From assembly GCF_003334305.1 (NCBI RefSeq), contig NZ_QOWS01000026.1: DNA of 64,000 nucleotides; one strand, given 5' to 3'. This document shows positions 2,936 to 46,620 of the stretch, piece by piece. Position 1 is the first letter of the stretch. Every line of letters starts with the position of its first letter. The position numbers were made by a program, and so were the translations under genes. This stretch comes from Escherichia coli. GTDB lineage: Bacteria; Pseudomonadota; Gammaproteobacteria; Enterobacterales; Enterobacteriaceae. The notes beneath the pieces are model-generated. The model made no database searches, had not been told where the DNA came from, and saw only the letters and a program-made list of their open reading frames with translations.

Positions 2936-3970
2936 ATGAGTAACGCGATTACGATGGGGATATTTTGGCATTTGATCGGCGCGGCCAGTGCAGCCTGTTT
3001 TTACGCTCCGTTCAAAAAAGTAAAAAAATGGTCATGGGAAACCATGTGGTCAGTCGGTGGGATTGTTTCGTGGATTATTCTGCCGTGGGCCATCAGCGCC
3101 CTGTTACTACCGAATTTCTGGGCGTATTACAGCTCGTTTAGTCTCTCTACGCTGCTGCCTGTTTTTCTGTTCGGCGCTATGTGGGGGATCGGTAATATCA
3201 ACTATGGCCTGACCATGCGTTATCTCGGCATGTCGATGGGAATTGGCATCGCCATTGGCATTACGTTGATTGTCGGTACGCTGATGACGCCAATTATCAA
3301 CGGCAATTTCGATGTGCTGATTAACACCGAAGGCGGACGCATGACGTTGCTCGGCGTTCTGGTGGCGCTGATTGGCGTAGGGATTGTAACTCGAGCCGGG
3401 CAGTTGAAAGAGCGCAAGATGGGCATTAAAGCCGAAGAGTTCAATCTGAAAAAAGGGCTGGTGCTGGCGGTGATGTGCGGCATTTTCTCTGCCGGGATGT
3501 CCTTTGCGATGAACGCCGCAAAACCGATGCATGAAGCCGCTGCCGCACTAGGCGTCGATCCACTGTATGTCGCTCTGCCAAGCTATGTCATCATCATGGG
3601 CGGCGGCGCGATCATCAACCTCGGTTTCTGTTTTATTCGTCTGGCAAAAGTGAAGGATTTGTCGCTAAAAGCCGACTTCTCGCTGGCAAAACCGCTGATC
3701 ACTCACAATGTGTTACTCTCAGCACTGGGCGGGTTGATGTGGTATCTGCAATTCTTTTTCTATGCCTGGGGCCACGCCCGCATTCCGGCGCAATATGACT
3801 ACATCAGTTGGATGCTGCATATGAGCTTCTATGTATTGTGCGGCGGTATCGTCGGGCTGGTGCTGAAAGAGTGGAACAATGCAGGACGCCGTCCGGTAAC
3901 GGTGTTGAGCCTCGGTTGTGTGGTGATTATTGTCGCCGCTAACATCGTCGGCATCGGCATGGCGAATTAA
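2936..3970 (+). CDS. rhaT: L-rhamnose:H+ symporter
   Basis: 344 aa, [38 protein letters not shown]..., a 10-TM DMT-type protein. It sits beside rhaRS as in E. coli. Confidence 0.95.
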
Positions 3971-22883: not shown

Positions 22884-23063
22884 TCTCTGACGTTTTCCGG
22901 GTGGCGCTGGTCGCCCGGATTACAGCTCATAGGGTGTGACGACACCATCTCTCGTATTCCGCGTTACCCATTCAAGATCATGCCGCAATTGTCTGTTTGC
23001 CTCGTTCTTCCCTCCAACACATCGATAAGGTTATGGGTATGTCACTGATGACAAGCGTATGAT

Positions 23064-23163
23064 TGCCTGATGCGCTGCGCTTATCAGCCCTACCAATAAA
23101 CTTCAATATATTGAATTTGCATGACTTTGTAGGCCGGATAAGGCGTTCACGCCGCATCCGGCA
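23064..23163. repeat. Two REP elements
   Basis: tgcctgatgcgctgcgcttatcagccctac (23064-23093) and tgtaggccggataaggcgttcacgccgcatccggca (23128-23163). Confidence 0.8.
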
Positions 23164-23212
23164 TGAACAACGCGCACGTTGTCAGCAATCTGATTGACAT
23201 CATTTTTTCCCA

Positions 23213-23431
23213 TTACCATTCCTCGCGCAGCTTACGCTGATATTCGACACCATCTTCCTCACACCCTTGCCAGATGCCAGGAACACTGGTTCTTGCTGTT
23301 TGCGATTGATTTATCAGGTATTGATCTACCGCTTCCCTTAATAGGTCCGCACGAGGAAGATTACGCTGCACCTCGAGATCATCAAGTTGCTTAATCACCT
23401 CATTCGATAAATCGAGTAAAATTCTGCCCAT
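23213..23431 (-). CDS. yiiF: Small ribbon-helix-helix (CopG/Arc/MetJ-like) DNA-binding protein YiiF
   Basis: Track ORF 23213..23455. From the internal Met it reads [39 protein letters not shown]..., 72 aa as I recall for YiiF, with a beta-strand/helix/helix pattern. The start codon is uncertain (23431 or 23455). Confidence 0.8.
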
Positions 23432-23548
23432 ATCTATACCTGCCAGAGAGTTCATAAATATCTCGCCAATATCATTTTTGAATCTATGGAGAGAAAAGTA
23501 CCCTTGCCGAATCTTTAAAGAAAGCTCATTTACGCATCATTTTTTATT

Positions 23549-23568
23549 TTTGCGAGGCGTTTTCCAGA
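23549..23568 (-). promoter_or_regulatory. Conserved 20-bp box, copy 1 (candidate -24/-12 promoter upstream of yiiF)
   Basis: The minus strand reads TCTGGAAAACGCCTCGCAAA, with GG and GC spaced as in sigma-54 promoters. It lies about 118 nt upstream of the yiiF ATG. See findings. Confidence 0.4.
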
Positions 23569-23673
23569 TACGATGTAACAGTTGCAGTTATTATAAGTTC
23601 AAGTAAAACAGCCTTGTATTAATACCAGAATAAGGGCATCTGTTTTTTTATATTCAAGAATGAAAAATTTTTT

Positions 23674-23892
23674 TCATTCCTTATGCTCCTTACACTGATC
23701 ATCAACACCAACTGTCTCACCCCTTTGCCTGCCTCTCTTTGCTTTACGCACCGGAAATTGCTGCCGCTCCAGATATTGCTCAACCGCTTCGCGTAAAATT
23801 GCAGATCGTGAAACCTTACGCCAGCCCCGAAGCTTGTTCAGCCGTTTAATTGCCTCTTCTGATAAATGAAGAAAAACCGTATTCATCGCCAT
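23674..23892 (-). CDS. yiiE: Small ribbon-helix-helix DNA-binding protein YiiE (paralogue of YiiF)
   Basis: Track ORF 23674..23919. The ATG at 23892 is preceded by aaggtgg. It reads MAMNTVFLHLSEEAIKRLNKLRGWRKVSRSAILREAVEQYLERQ..., 72 aa. Confidence 0.82.
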   Translation of the reverse strand: MAMNTVFLHLSEEAIKRLNKLRGWRKVSRSAILREAVEQYLERQQFPVRKAKRGRQRGETVGVDDQCKEHKE

Positions 23893-23987
23893 TACCACCA
23901 CCTTACATATATTACTCATTAATGTATGTGCGAAAATTACGCCGGAAAATCATTTAAAAAAAGCGGATTTTTGCATGTTGTTTTGTT

Positions 23988-24007
23988 TTTGCGAGGTGTT
24001 TTCCAGA
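23988..24007 (-). promoter_or_regulatory. Conserved 20-bp box, copy 2 (upstream of yiiE)
   Basis: The minus strand reads TCTGGAAAACACCTCGCAAA, about 96 nt upstream of the yiiE ATG. The flanking AACTGCAAC is also shared with copy 1. Confidence 0.4.
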
Positions 24008-24496
24008 AATAATAAGAGTGTTGCAGTTGTTTCATTTATTACTCAAAAATGGTTTAGTTATCGCCCAGGATGAGTTATGGATGCTATGAATATATTATAT
24101 TCAGGGATGTTTATTTTTTGATTGGATCTTTATTTGCATAATCTGAATGGTGTACCCGAAAAATGTCAGCATCCTAACAGCACCCGGATTTAAGGTGAAA
24201 TTAATCATCCATCACAGACCGGTCAGTACTGCCACCAACCGGTCTTTACTTGTTCATCGTTATAATTTTGTTGGTAACAGTTCGGGAAACAAGGAATTCC
24301 TTCCGGAACCCCCCGGTATCATCCGATAGCATTGACGTCAATCATCAGCGCGACGATGAGTTTTTTTAATCGCATCATAGGGTGGCGACGTTCAGCACGA
24401 TTACGGGTCATAGCAAAACTCCTGGGCAGGCGACCACTATGCCGCTTTCACAGGAGTTCTGAATGCTAGTGCTTTCTGTATGGCATAACCATGCCT

Positions 24497-24787
24497 CTAA
24501 CGGTTAAGTGCTTGCAGCACATGTTGCGGATCATTGGCAATCGCTCGCAGCAAAGCCTTTGCAGGCCCGGTCGGTGAACGTCGCCCCTGCTCCCAGTTAC
24601 GCAACGTGTCTACGCTTACAGAAATAAGATCGGCAAATTTAGATTGTGACAACCCTGAAGCGCGGCGTATTTCTTTGATTTTCATAGCATCAACTTCAAA
24701 AGTCCGCGAAGGCTGTCGCGTTCCTTCAATAATTTCATTCATCTGGGCCATGCTGTGAGTCAACCGCTCAAAAAGTGCCTTATCCAT
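24497..24787 (-). CDS. XRE-family HTH antitoxin (HigA-2 type)
   Basis: 96 aa. IKEIRRASGLSQSKFADLISVSVDTLRNWEQGRRSPTGPAKALL is a Cro/C1-type HTH. Its ATG directly abuts the stop of the upstream toxin ORF (TGGTAAATG). Confidence 0.8.
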   Translation of the reverse strand: MDKALFERLTHSMAQMNEIIEGTRQPSRTFEVDAMKIKEIRRASGLSQSKFADLISVSVDTLRNWEQGRRSPTGPAKALLRAIANDPQHVLQALNR

Positions 24788-25099
24788 TTACCACCTCGTA
24801 TTTAACAACCGGAGCATTGCTTTTTCCTGGGGAGACAGATCATCTTTAATACCCTTACGATAAATAAGCAGTAATCTGATCTCATAATGTTTAACCTGAT
24901 GAAAGTAAATAACCCTGACACCAGCACGTTTCCCCTTTCCTCCTGAAACCCATCGAACCTTTCTTAACCCACCAGTTTCAGGTATTACCTCACCATAGTC
25001 AGGATTCAAGGCCAGGAAAAACTGAAAACGACTGAATTCATCGTCGGTCAGCAGTTTTTGAACATCTTCAGTAAAAATTTCCGTTTCGATGAAGAGCAT
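24788..25099 (-). CDS. RelE/ParE-superfamily toxin (HigB-2 type)
   Basis: 103 aa, MLFIETEIFTEDVQKLLTDDEFSRFQFFLALNPDYGEVIPETGGLRKVRWVSGGKGKRAGVRVIYF.... The pattern resembles Vibrio HigB-2 as I recall it (GGLRK.R...GKGKRGG.R.IY). The toxin-first gene order is typical of hig loci. Confidence 0.75.
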   Translation of the reverse strand: MLFIETEIFTEDVQKLLTDDEFSRFQFFLALNPDYGEVIPETGGLRKVRWVSGGKGKRAGVRVIYFHQVKHYEIRLLLIYRKGIKDDLSPQEKAMLRLLNTRW

Positions 25100-25136
25100 A
25101 ATTATACGCCATTGGCTTAGAGTAACAATCCTTTTT

Positions 25137-25153
25137 GTACGTCATTGACGTAC
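25137..25153. promoter_or_regulatory. Perfect palindrome, candidate antitoxin operator
   Basis: gtacgtca-t-tgacgtac has 8-bp arms and lies 38-54 bp upstream of the toxin ATG. Confidence 0.45.
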
Positions 25154-25220
25154 CCTTGAAACCACTAGCTTACTGATAGTGCTCCAGCAAAACCACGTCT
25201 CTGCCGGGTTTGTCTTTAGA

Positions 25221-25240
25221 TTTGCGAGGCGCTTTCCAGA
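25221..25240 (-). promoter_or_regulatory. Conserved 20-bp box, copy 3 (upstream of the toxin gene)
   Basis: The minus strand reads TCTGGAAAGCGCCTCGCAAA, about 122 nt upstream of the toxin ATG. Confidence 0.35.
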
Positions 25241-25327
25241 TTTTTCACGCCCGTGAATTTCCCTGTATCCATCCAGCAAAAACGGGTGTATAAGACTGTA
25301 CATTCATACAGCAAAATAAGTTCTACT

Positions 25328-26236
25328 ATGGCACTGGAAAAAGGAATTGCAGAGTTAGTCGAAAAGTTTATCGCTGCGGGTCGCCCCTCATCGCGTCAAC
25401 AAAGTATTGCGCAGCGCAGGGAGGGCTATATCGCCAGCGCTGTCCTTGCGGGTGAGACAGAAACGCGGGTAGATATTCAGACTATCGAACTTGAAGGGAT
25501 GACCTTACGAATAGTGTCGCCGCTGAATGCCCCGACATTACTCCCGACGATAATTTATTACTACGGTGGCTGTTTTGTTAGCGGCGGGTTCGCAACTCAC
25601 GACAACCAGCTGCGCCAGTTAGCCTATTACGGGCAATGTCGGGTTATTGCCGTCCAGTATCGGCTGGCACCGGAACATACTTTCCCCGCCGCCCATGATG
25701 ATGCGCAACGAGGTGCAGAAATAGTCTGGCAACACGCCGAACGACTCGGCGTTGATAAACAACGTATAACTCTTGCCGGTGACAGTGCGGGCGGACATCT
25801 GGCGCTGGTAACTGCTTTGCGATTAAAGCGTGCTGGCGAGTGGCAACCGGCACAACTCATCTTAATTTATCCTATGCTTGATGCGACTGCGCATTTCGAA
25901 AGCTACATACGCAATGGTCACGATTACATCATCACACGCGACACTTTACTGAGCGGCTTTGAGATGTATCTGCCAGGCATTGAACGCAGGCATCCTGAAG
26001 CCAGCCCTCTTTGGCGCGATGATTTCAATGGCTTGCCACCTGTACATATCATTACCGCTGAATACGACCCACTTTGCGATGAAGGTGAAGCGTTGTATCA
26101 CCGCATGACAGGGCAAGGAGTGCAATGCACCTGCCAACGCTACCTTGGCGTTATCCACGGATTTTTTCAGTTAGGTGGTATCAGCGAGGCCGCGCGATCG
26201 GCACTACGGGATGTTGCCTGGAGAGCGGGAAGGTAA
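25328..26236 (+). CDS. Alpha/beta-hydrolase, hormone-sensitive-lipase family (family IV esterase)
   Basis: Track ORF 25253..26236 has a GTG start. The ATG at 25328 (MALEKGIAELVEKF...) gives the usual ~80 aa before the oxyanion-hole block. Motifs present are GDSAGG (nucleophile elbow), EYDPLCDEG (Asp) and GVIHGF (His). Confidence 0.8.
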   Translation: MALEKGIAELVEKFIAAGRPSSRQQSIAQRREGYIASAVLAGETETRVDIQTIELEGMTLRIVSPLNAPTLLPTIIYYYGGCFVSGGFATHDNQLRQLAYYGQCRVIAVQYRLAPEHTFPAAHDDAQRGAEIVWQHAERLGVDKQRITLAGDSAGGHLALVTALRLKRAGEWQPAQLILIYPMLDATAHFESYIRNGHDYIITRDTLLSGFEMYLPGIERRHPEASPLWRDDFNGLPPVHIITAEYDPLCDEGEALYHRMTGQGVQCTCQRYLGVIHGFFQLGGISEAARSALRDVAWRAGR

Positions 26237-26251
26237 CTTCGGACCTGGGCC

Positions 26252-26284
26252 CTGAAAAGGTTTTCAGATTGAAAACCTTTTCAG
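26252..26284. terminator. Bidirectional hairpin between the convergent esterase gene and yiiD
   Basis: ctgaaaaggttttc-agatt-gaaaaccttttcag has a perfect 14-bp stem. Confidence 0.7.
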
Positions 26285-26299
26285 TCAAGTAAAACGCCC

Positions 26300-46573: not shown

Positions 46574-46604
46574 TGATAACGCCTTTTAGGGGCAATTTAA
46601 AAGT

Positions 46605-46620
46605 TGGCACAGATTTCGCT
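46605..46620 (+). promoter_or_regulatory. glnAp2 sigma-54 promoter
   Basis: TGGCACagattTCGCT has the canonical -24 GG / -12 GC spacing and lies about 85 nt upstream of the glnA ATG. Confidence 0.9.

Follow-up and report, generated by a model that had tools for sequence, protein, structure and literature searches.

A 20-bp box upstream of yiiF, yiiE and a HigB/RelE-like toxin gene of Escherichia coli is probably a CRP-S site

Which protein would recognise a 20-bp box that stands three times, each time ahead of a small gene, between fdhE and fabY of Escherichia coli? The box lies in a 64-kb E. coli segment (the window), and a preliminary description proposed that it is a promoter element, possibly sigma-54-dependent, shared by three small regulator or toxin-antitoxin (TA) units. 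Our analysis points elsewhere: the box is probably a CRP-S site, that is, an asymmetric, low-affinity cyclic AMP (cAMP)-CRP site that is productive only with the co-activator Sxy (TfoX). The window was searched with the box pattern TCTGGAAARCRCCTCGCAAA, with up to 3 mismatches allowed, and exactly three matches were obtained, all on the minus strand. These are precisely the boxes that had been described, with the same coordinates and sequences.

23549-23568, minus strand: box copy 1, putative CRP-S-type site upstream of yiiF; core TGGAA-aacgcc-TCGCA at 23551-23566
23988-24007, minus strand: box copy 2, putative CRP-S-type site upstream of yiiE; core TGGAA-aacacc-TCGCA at 23990-24005
25221-25240, minus strand: box copy 3, putative CRP-S-type site upstream of the HigB/RelE-like toxin gene; core TGGAA-agcgcc-TCGCA at 25223-25238

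By chance 0.02 matches are expected, and three were reached in 0 of 100 dinucleotide shuffles. The distances to the start codons were re-measured and agree with those described before: copy 1 lies 93 nt upstream of the yiiF ATG (23455), copy 2 lies 95 nt upstream of the annotated-length yiiE start (23892), and copy 3 lies 121 nt upstream of the toxin ATG (25099). When the K-12-style start of yiiF (23431) or the ATG of the longest yiiE open reading frame (ORF; 23919) is taken instead, the distances are 117 and 68 nt, respectively. The three downstream units are indeed of the small regulator or TA type, with two ribbon-helix-helix (RHH) proteins and a RelE/HigB-like toxin accompanied by a helix-turn-helix (HTH) antitoxin.

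On the minus strand, the box is laid out as tc-TGGAA-N6-TCGCA-aa. Sondberg et al. 2019 (PMC6728893) quote the E. coli CRP-S motif from Sinha et al. 2009 as T4G5C6G7A8-N6-T15T16C17C18A19, an asymmetric motif that works either way round. Reverse-complemented, the motif reads TGGAA-N6-TCGCA and coincides with the conserved part of the box, of which the preliminary description knew no published account; it agrees with all three copies at 10 of 10 half-site bases. In the window this pattern is found in the three boxes only, with 0.15 occurrences expected from shuffles. The boxes are best read as additional consensus CRP-S sites, the site type itself being already known. The sixth position of the half-sites should also be noted. 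Enterobacterial CRP-S half-sites never have T6, and G6 is found where C6 is missing (Cameron and Redfield 2006, PMC1635313). The box obeys this rule, with C6 in the TGCGA half, G6 in the TGGAA half, and T6 in neither.

The CRP-S site of sxy (tfoX) (Jaskolska and Gerdes 2015; Sondberg et al. 2019, PMC6728893) resembles the boxes in its asymmetric 5-6-5 layout, in which a TGCGA half is paired with a weak GGAA-type half. The K-12 sxy promoter sequence, ttttCGGAAagagccTCGCAaatttt, contains the half-sites TTCCG and TGCGA, which were tested by mutation (Sondberg et al. 2019, PMC6728893), whereas the boxes are known from sequence. Copy 3 (TGGAAagcgccTCGCAaa) is identical to the sxy site (CGGAAagagccTCGCAaa) at 18 of 22 positions, copies 1 and 2 at 16 of 22 each, and a site upstream of yhcG, described below, at 17 of 22. 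The sxy site lies about 128 nt from its ATG, compared with 93-121 nt for the window boxes, and the sxy site and copy 3 both have the LexA box of a divergent neighbour just upstream. The weak half of the sxy site starts with C, whereas that of the boxes starts with the consensus T.

The ppdD promoter binds CRP weakly, and its 90-fold induction by Sxy depends on crp and cAMP (Cameron and Redfield 2006, PMC1635313). Its sequence, TTCGTaacgccTCGCAaat, has 13 consecutive bases, AACGCCTCGCAAA, in common with copy 1, and the ppdD site is located 128 nt from the ATG. The ppdD site differs from the box in its weak half (TTCGT, not TGGAA) and in its downstream gene, which belongs to the DNA-uptake machinery (competence pilin). 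The upstream region of yhgH/gntX, where yhgH is annotated as a DNA-utilization protein, contains AGGAActtagcTCGCA, which in our own reading would be the yhgH/gntX CRP-S site.

The variation of the box was compared among the copies and among strain variants. The changes gather at positions 7-12, which comprise the spacer and the last base of the weaker half-site, whereas T.TGGA and CTCGCAAA are near-invariant; since the invariant and variable positions are divided in this manner, the element is considered to be bipartite with a 5-6-5 layout. Position 2 is C or T, and one variant has TCGTA. In the strain variants of copy 2, TGGA and CTCGCAAA are kept and the changes lie mostly between them, and weaker variants are found before yiiE and yiiF homologues (TTTGGATGCAGTCTCGCAAA, TTTGGATGCCGTCTCGCAAA, TTTGGAAAGAGTCTCGCAAA, TCTGGACAATGCCTCGCAAA, and TTTGGAAACCGCCTCGTAAA). 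This distribution is that of CRP-S sites, in which the spacer and the weaker half-site tolerate variation and the TGCGA half is conserved.

The surroundings of the copies should be considered together with the boxes themselves. Copies 1 and 2 lie inside a paralogous 100-nt stretch (23493-23592 and 23932-24031) that is 71% identical overall, whereas the boxes in it are identical at 19 of 20 positions, indicating that the box is constrained more strongly than its surroundings. As described before, copies 1 and 2 also share AACTGCAAC and a TATATTCA(A/G)G(A/G)ATG block, both of which are present in the window. The TATATTCA block upstream of copy 2 is a perfect 7-3-7 palindrome, TGAATATAATATATTCA, at about 24084-24100 on the minus strand, about 80 bp upstream of the box; copy 1 has a related block upstream of it, at 23648-23672, in which just half of the palindrome is kept. 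Copy 3 has no flanking similarity to copies 1 and 2, and the likeness ends beyond about 27 nt. Its left flank, containing the hydrolase start and a LexA box, is syntenic with other genera, and the downstream genes differ. In cross-genus alignments the box is 100% conserved and the adjoining intergenic DNA has diverged, and the invariance of the 20-mer despite diverged flanks suggests that the box is under selection.

We scanned one genome per species for the strict 20-mer and obtained 85 stretches. About 50 of them are enterobacterial or E. coli-like contigs under other names, and the enterobacterial ones represent a dozen or more named genera, including Escherichia, Citrobacter, Enterobacter, Kosakonia, Lelliottia, Phytobacter, Atlantibacter, Franconibacter, Scandinavium, Leclercia, Superficieibacter, and Silvania. 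The remaining stretches are spread over unrelated phyla and, judged by eye, at least some of them lie in coding-like sequence; their number is somewhat over a rough chance estimate of about 17, though of the same order. Five short contigs labelled Bacillus coahuilensis, Clostridiales, Veillonella, or Robinsoniella (L023, L046, L049, L066, and L075) match the E. coli yiiE/yiiF region over about 130 nt, and they look like contamination of those assemblies. In the enterobacterial stretches the flanks are unrelated and various genes lie downstream, as listed here.

Before RHH and PIN genes (vapBC, the intact form of yiiF), 92-108 nt from the start
Before higB-like toxin genes, 121-125 nt from the start
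Before a Gp49/HigB-like and HTH gene pair
Before a LysR gene
Before a phosphotransferase system (PTS) EIICB operon, about 150 nt from the ORF start, with conserved core genes on either side in about 10 species
Beside modules with C4 antisense RNA
With a divergent relB-like gene on the other side (locus L037)

At the PTS EIICB locus, a canonical CRP-like TGTTA-N6-TCACA is located 25 nt past the 20-mer. In many E. coli strains, yhcG (a DUF1016/PDDEXK nuclease gene) is preceded at a distance of 107 nt by a near-copy, TCTGGAAAGCGCCTCGCATAA; in E. coli O157:H7 this near-copy is placed in the gltD-yhcG spacer (L092, 2501-2521) after a terminator-like hairpin of gltD and is a fourth E. coli box. Among complete E. 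coli genomes, 5421 of 5426 carry the box, at a median of three places each. The C4 antisense RNA genes (Rfam RF01695) that adjoin boxes were found in L006, L013, and L027 (in the infA-clpA slot) and in L014 (after an ABC-transporter operon). An ORF of 143-151 amino acids comes after each of them, and L044 has the same 151-amino-acid ORF; the two of these ORFs that were scanned (L013 and L014) gave no Pfam match. The box is oriented either way relative to the C4 unit; where it lies in the infA-clpA slot, its complementary strand reads TTGCGA-N17-TATTAT ahead of the a1/b1 and C4 elements.

The following -10-like hexamers were found at an offset of 51 nt after TCGCA in each unit.

23495-23500, minus strand: predicted P1 -10 TACTTT for yiiF, predicted start near 23488
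23934-23939, minus strand: predicted P1 -10 TAATTT for yiiE, predicted start near 23927
25167-25172, minus strand: predicted P1 -10 TAAGCT for the toxin-antitoxin operon, predicted start near 25160

TAAGCT of the toxin-antitoxin operon is matched at its offset by TAAGGT in the Citrobacter homologue L057, and vapB/yiiF promoters of several genera also have TAnnnT at offset 51. In 36-37 non-redundant box contexts, TAnnnT occurs downstream of TCGCA at offsets 50-52 in 12-13 contexts and at offsets 61-62 in 9, where the mean is 0.93 per offset. The observed peak was reached by 1 of 5000 random circular shifts, and the mirror-image control showed no comparable peak. With these offsets the centre of the site would fall near -70.5 or -81, two positions separated by one helical turn. 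Published work describes CRP-S promoters as class-I-like, being AR1-dependent and AR2-independent with class-I-like distances from site to start. The -10 phasing of the boxes fits class-I CRP spacing, which is supportive rather than decisive, and the box has the appearance of a site from which sigma-70 promoters are activated. The fallback offered in the preliminary description, a sigma-70 UP-like or operator element carried along by tandem duplication, was thus nearer to the truth in that a sigma-70-associated upstream element was considered, but a mere duplication relic does not agree with a box that is better kept than its flanks and recurs with unrelated ones.

Precedents for such an arrangement are found in two TA systems. 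The hicAB locus of E. coli combines P1, a distal CRP-S/Sxy promoter, with P2, a proximal promoter repressed by the antitoxin (Turnbull and Gerdes 2017, as reported in PMC6957337). As far as that report describes it, hicAB resembles the higB-like module of the window in that the toxin gene comes first and the proximal promoter is close to the toxin start, P1 and P2 of the window being predicted; the protein families differ. In the hicA upstream region, no equally clear TGGAA-N6-TCGCA site was picked out. The toxTA genes of Haemophilus influenzae (HI0660/HI0659) are HigB/HigA-like and CRP-S-regulated, and have a second internal start (PMC6957337). By family description, toxTA is like the window module, in which a RelE/HigB-like toxin gene likewise precedes an XRE-type HTH antitoxin gene. 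CRP-S sites of Pasteurellaceae have a palindromic form, TGCGA-N6-TCGCA, whereas the boxes have the asymmetric enterobacterial form. A proximal promoter-like sequence was found also in the window, by analogy with P2 of hicAB and toxTA (PMC6957337).

25101-25128, minus strand: candidate P2 TTGTTA-N16-TATAAT, abutting the toxin ATG

A conserved element, TGATATACT, is found in the vapB/yiiF promoters, together with an inverted repeat located at the start codon. Since the hicAB and toxTA precedents, the TTGTTA-N16-TATAAT sequence at the toxin ATG, and the start-codon repeat of vapB/yiiF fit together, we infer a distal P1 combined with proximal autoregulation. When Sxy builds up and cAMP is high, CRP-Sxy would occupy the box, and activating region 1 of CRP would recruit sigma-70 RNA polymerase to a weak distal P1, whose -10 lies about 51 nt downstream with the site centre near -70.5. 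Transcripts from P1 would enter yiiF, yiiE, and the toxin-antitoxin operon after leaders of about 33-60 nt. The proximal promoter and operator sequences near the start codons may carry the usual antitoxin autoregulation, and P2 transcripts would begin inside the toxin gene and so could not encode the toxin. By this analogy, CRP and Sxy would bind, transcription would start at the predicted positions, and the two-promoter logic would operate at the yiiF, yiiE, and toxin genes; the boxes are most likely distal Sxy- and cAMP-CRP-activated promoters of TA-type units, like those of hicAB and toxTA. In E. coli, chpSB, higBA, and hokD are also reported to be induced when Sxy is overexpressed. K-12 higB is preceded, at about 150 nt (L097, about 3600-3622, minus strand), by TCTGGAAtcgcgcTTCCAtaaa, a palindromic pair of the weak TGGAA half-sites without a TGCGA half.

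A broader proposal, which we regard as speculative though within reach, concerns the invariant 20-mer, TCTGGAAA-RCRY-CTCGCAAA. It may represent a high-specificity subclass of CRP-S sites in which the extra conserved bases (TC, CC, and AAA) hold the determinant of Sxy dependence. It may also serve as a portable plug by which acquired TA or defence-type genes (vapBC, higBA-like, Gp49/HTH, and relB-like genes, the YhcG nuclease, and C4-antisense-RNA modules) and the PTS operon were wired into the Sxy regulon in at least a dozen genera of enterobacteria. In that case, Sxy-controlled units would stand in tandem in the fdhE-fabY slot of E. coli, beside an SOS (LexA)-controlled gene.

Several observations weigh against the assignment as CRP-S and the promoters deduced from it. 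The TGGAA half has A at G7, the base preferred by CRP; as this should make binding by CRP alone very weak, everything depends on Sxy. TC at the left, CC before TCGCA, and AAA after it are conserved more than the published motif requires. Some boxes face no obvious gene, and that of L037 aims at the 3' end of cybC. The -10 phasing is partly inflated by related promoters, with most offset-51 cases coming from the vapB family, and the validated sxy and ppdD promoters, inspected by eye only, show no such hexamer at those offsets. The start-site supplements of two Cappable-seq papers hold no entry for the yiiE/yiiF region.

The sigma-54 reading takes the box as a -24/-12 promoter, from which transcription would start about 12 nt after GC and need an enhancer-binding protein. 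The TGG-N9-TCGCA spacing on which this proposal was based is present, with GG and GC 12 bp apart as in TGGCAC-N5-TTGCA, and it is kept in the strain variants; glnAp2, found in the window at 46604-46620 as described, has the same 12-bp spacing and TCGC in its -12 element. A few sites bound in chromatin immunoprecipitation sequencing (ChIP-seq) have TGGAAC and TCGCA, such as CTGGAACGCTTTTCGCA in rlmD. The scores give a different picture. The 135 ChIP-seq sites reported by Bonocora et al. 2015 (PMC4591121) were turned into a weight matrix of 17 columns, on which those sites themselves score 6.76-20.3 bits (median 14.4, 5th percentile 10.1). The three boxes score 4.85, 6.68, and 5.32 bits, under every bound site, and 208-249 positions in the window score as high or higher. 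By comparison, glnAp2 scores 16.25 bits and is ChIP-seq-bound, whereas the boxes have no listing: no yiiE/yiiF site was found in Tables 1 and 2 or the searched supplement text of the ChIP-seq study, made in K-12, which has copies 1 and 2, or in the RpoN list obtained with naked DNA by genomic systematic evolution of ligands by exponential enrichment (SELEX; Shimada et al. 2021). The closest listed sigma-54 site is inside fdoI. Moreover, the conserved AA after GG and the trailing AAA are not needed by sigma-54, while they correspond to a half-site and flank of CRP-S. We consider a sigma-54 promoter highly improbable, and of the earlier proposal what stands is a shared, selected cis-regulatory element before three regulator or TA units, not its sigma-54 dependence. 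GG-N10-GC spacing is a poor indicator of a sigma-54 promoter where the flanking bases misfit. Just upstream of yiiE, CCGGCGTAATTTTCGCA (23929-23945, minus strand) scores 12.96 bits on the same matrix, far over the boxes; it overlaps the predicted P1 -10 TAATTT, is identical in K-12, and has no sigma-54 ChIP-seq listing.

Three other explanations assign the box to neither sigma-54 nor Sxy. The box could be an ordinary, Sxy-independent weak CRP site, since the 5-6-5 geometry of CRP is present, or a non-functional relic of the duplication that gave the yiiE and yiiF units, as copies 1 and 2 lie within the duplicated promoter segment. However, both halves lack T6 and one lacks G7, which is what renders CRP-S sites poor targets of CRP by itself, and a relic should not be kept at 19 of 20 positions within a 71%-identical segment, recur as copy 3 between dissimilar flanks, or stay invariant across genera; this explanation appears unlikely. 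An operator of the RHH protein of the locus (YiiE, YiiF, or VapB) would have two dimers bound to the direct repeats YGSAAA (TGGAAA and CGCAAA), 12 bp apart, for auto- or cross-repression. The conserved blocks are indeed about one helical turn apart, and two of the three downstream genes, as well as vapB elsewhere, encode RHH proteins, but the 20-mer also precedes units that have none (higBA-like, Gp49/HTH, yhcG, the PTS operon, and the LysR gene). The box is also about 90-120 nt from the starts, whereas vapB promoters have a separate proximal inverted repeat, GATATAC..GTATATC, and it would be a coincidence that the box is nearly identical to the CRP-S sites of sxy and ppdD, so that such an operator seems quite unlikely. 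An integron-like recombination or boundary site of small TA cassettes is suggested by the hypervariability of the fdhE-fabY interval, by the boxes standing as direct repeats between successive gene units, by synteny to the left of the box and variable genes to the right in other genera, and by yiiF-deletion alleles that join at the 3' end of the box. Most indel boundaries nevertheless lie elsewhere: the K-12-type breakpoint is at about 24289, a DUF6708 insertion lies about 35-45 bp upstream of copy 1, and homology in the infA-clpA slot runs about 25 nt beyond the box. At the PTS locus, the genes to either side are conserved core genes in about 10 species, the blocks of the box are not inverted repeats, unlike the arms of a tyrosine-recombinase site, and no recombinase gene is linked to the boxes among the locus genes examined. 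When six E. coli alleles and many genera were compared, the junctions were mostly off the box, and a cassette or attachment site as the main function was rejected as very improbable.

Further candidates were also rejected. Rfam gave nothing at the box, the only matches in the window being associated with repetitive extragenic palindromes between yiiF and fdhE. A 5'-untranslated-region element of a LexA-controlled transcript and a small leader ORF after the box are not conserved across the box contexts, and in K-12 the candidate leader ORF is interrupted early by a stop codon. A promoter read in the other direction, TTGCGA-N17-TATTAT, suits the infA-clpA context only. The MarA/SoxS/Rob box, the Ada box, and the sites of PurR, IclR/AllR, and Cra, as well as OmpR-type repeats, extracytoplasmic function sigma factors, and the P1 C1 operator, were considered too, and none fits the box.

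The gene order of the locus is fdhE (plus), yiiF (minus), yiiE (minus), the HTH antitoxin gene (minus), the RelE/HigB-like toxin gene (minus), an alpha/beta hydrolase gene (plus), and fabY/yiiD (minus). The genes downstream of the boxes are as follows.

23213-23455, minus strand: yiiF, RHH protein, VapB-like antitoxin, orphaned here
23674-23892 (longest ORF to 23919), minus strand: yiiE, RHH (CopG-family) protein, PF01402 with E = 2e-11
24497-24787, minus strand: HTH (XRE/'NadS family') antitoxin gene, 96 amino acids, from ORF, domain match, and RefSeq annotation
24788-25099, minus strand: RelE/HigB-like toxin gene, 103 amino acids, weak PF06296 match

In RefSeq the product of the 103-amino-acid toxin gene is annotated either as hypothetical or as a toxin of the RelE/ParE family. 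A PIN/VapC toxin gene follows the yiiF homologue of strain SX4 and those of other genera; since other fdhE-fabY alleles carry VapC at this position, yiiF of the window and of K-12 can be regarded as an orphan VapB-type antitoxin gene. The fdhE-fabY interval (22884-26299 in the window; loci L001-L004) is a hypervariable slot in E. coli. Alleles differ in VapC after the yiiF homologue, a DUF6708 gene pair, a ClbS/DfsB gene, two small hypothetical genes, IS621 or ISEc53, and the presence or absence of the hydrolase and toxin-antitoxin genes. K-12-type alleles have neither the toxin-antitoxin nor the hydrolase genes, and K-12 has copies 1 and 2 but not copy 3, the two intervals on NC_000913.3 being 4079176-4079195 and 4079614-4079633. 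Because of this absence, copy 3 and the higB-like operon fall outside the K-12 data set of Sinha et al. 2009. In the literature searched, no account of yiiE/yiiF regulation was found. The 2009 survey by Sinha and colleagues reportedly comprised 34 CRP-S units. In published papers, yiiE appears with a weak RpoS SELEX peak about 600 bp away and with a 2.5-fold induction by SlyA overexpression, in an H-NS-bound region. A literal search of paper texts for the box sequence returned one unrelated primer only.

In the alleles lacking yiiF (L002 at 1594-1613, L007, and L049), the box is joined directly to fdhE-side DNA as TCTGGAAAACGCCTCGCGAA|atacgagag, and in the window, at about 22945-22983, a weak box-like ATCTTGAATGGGTAACGCGGAA stands right before the same tacgagag. 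These junctions suggest that yiiF may have been lost by deletion between the short similar TCTGGAAAACGCCTCGCGAA and ATCTTGAATGGGTAACGCGGAA stretches. On the other side of the locus, a palindromic LexA-box-like sequence, CTGTATGAATGTACAG, is located at 25296-25311, 16 nt from the hydrolase ATG (25328-25330, plus strand) and about 57 nt upstream of copy 3, and it occupies the same position in Citrobacter, Phytobacter, Atlantibacter, and others. CTGTATGAATGTACAG and copy 3 are arranged as in the sulA|sxy intergenic region of K-12, in which 34 nt separate the LexA box of sulA from the sxy CRP-S site. This LexA-like box suggests that the hydrolase gene, or a transcript towards the toxin-antitoxin genes, may be SOS-regulated.

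If the assignment of the boxes to CRP-S is true, yiiE and yiiF, the orphan antitoxin-like regulators of K-12, would join the Sxy (competence) regulon, as would the strain-variable higBA-like module. The boxes are consensus-perfect and strongly conserved, and they would then be handy substrates for studying what makes CRP sites Sxy-dependent. The link between competence and TA systems, represented by hicAB, toxTA, and the Sxy-induced chpSB and higBA, would be widened to a conserved set of accessory genes across the Enterobacteriaceae.

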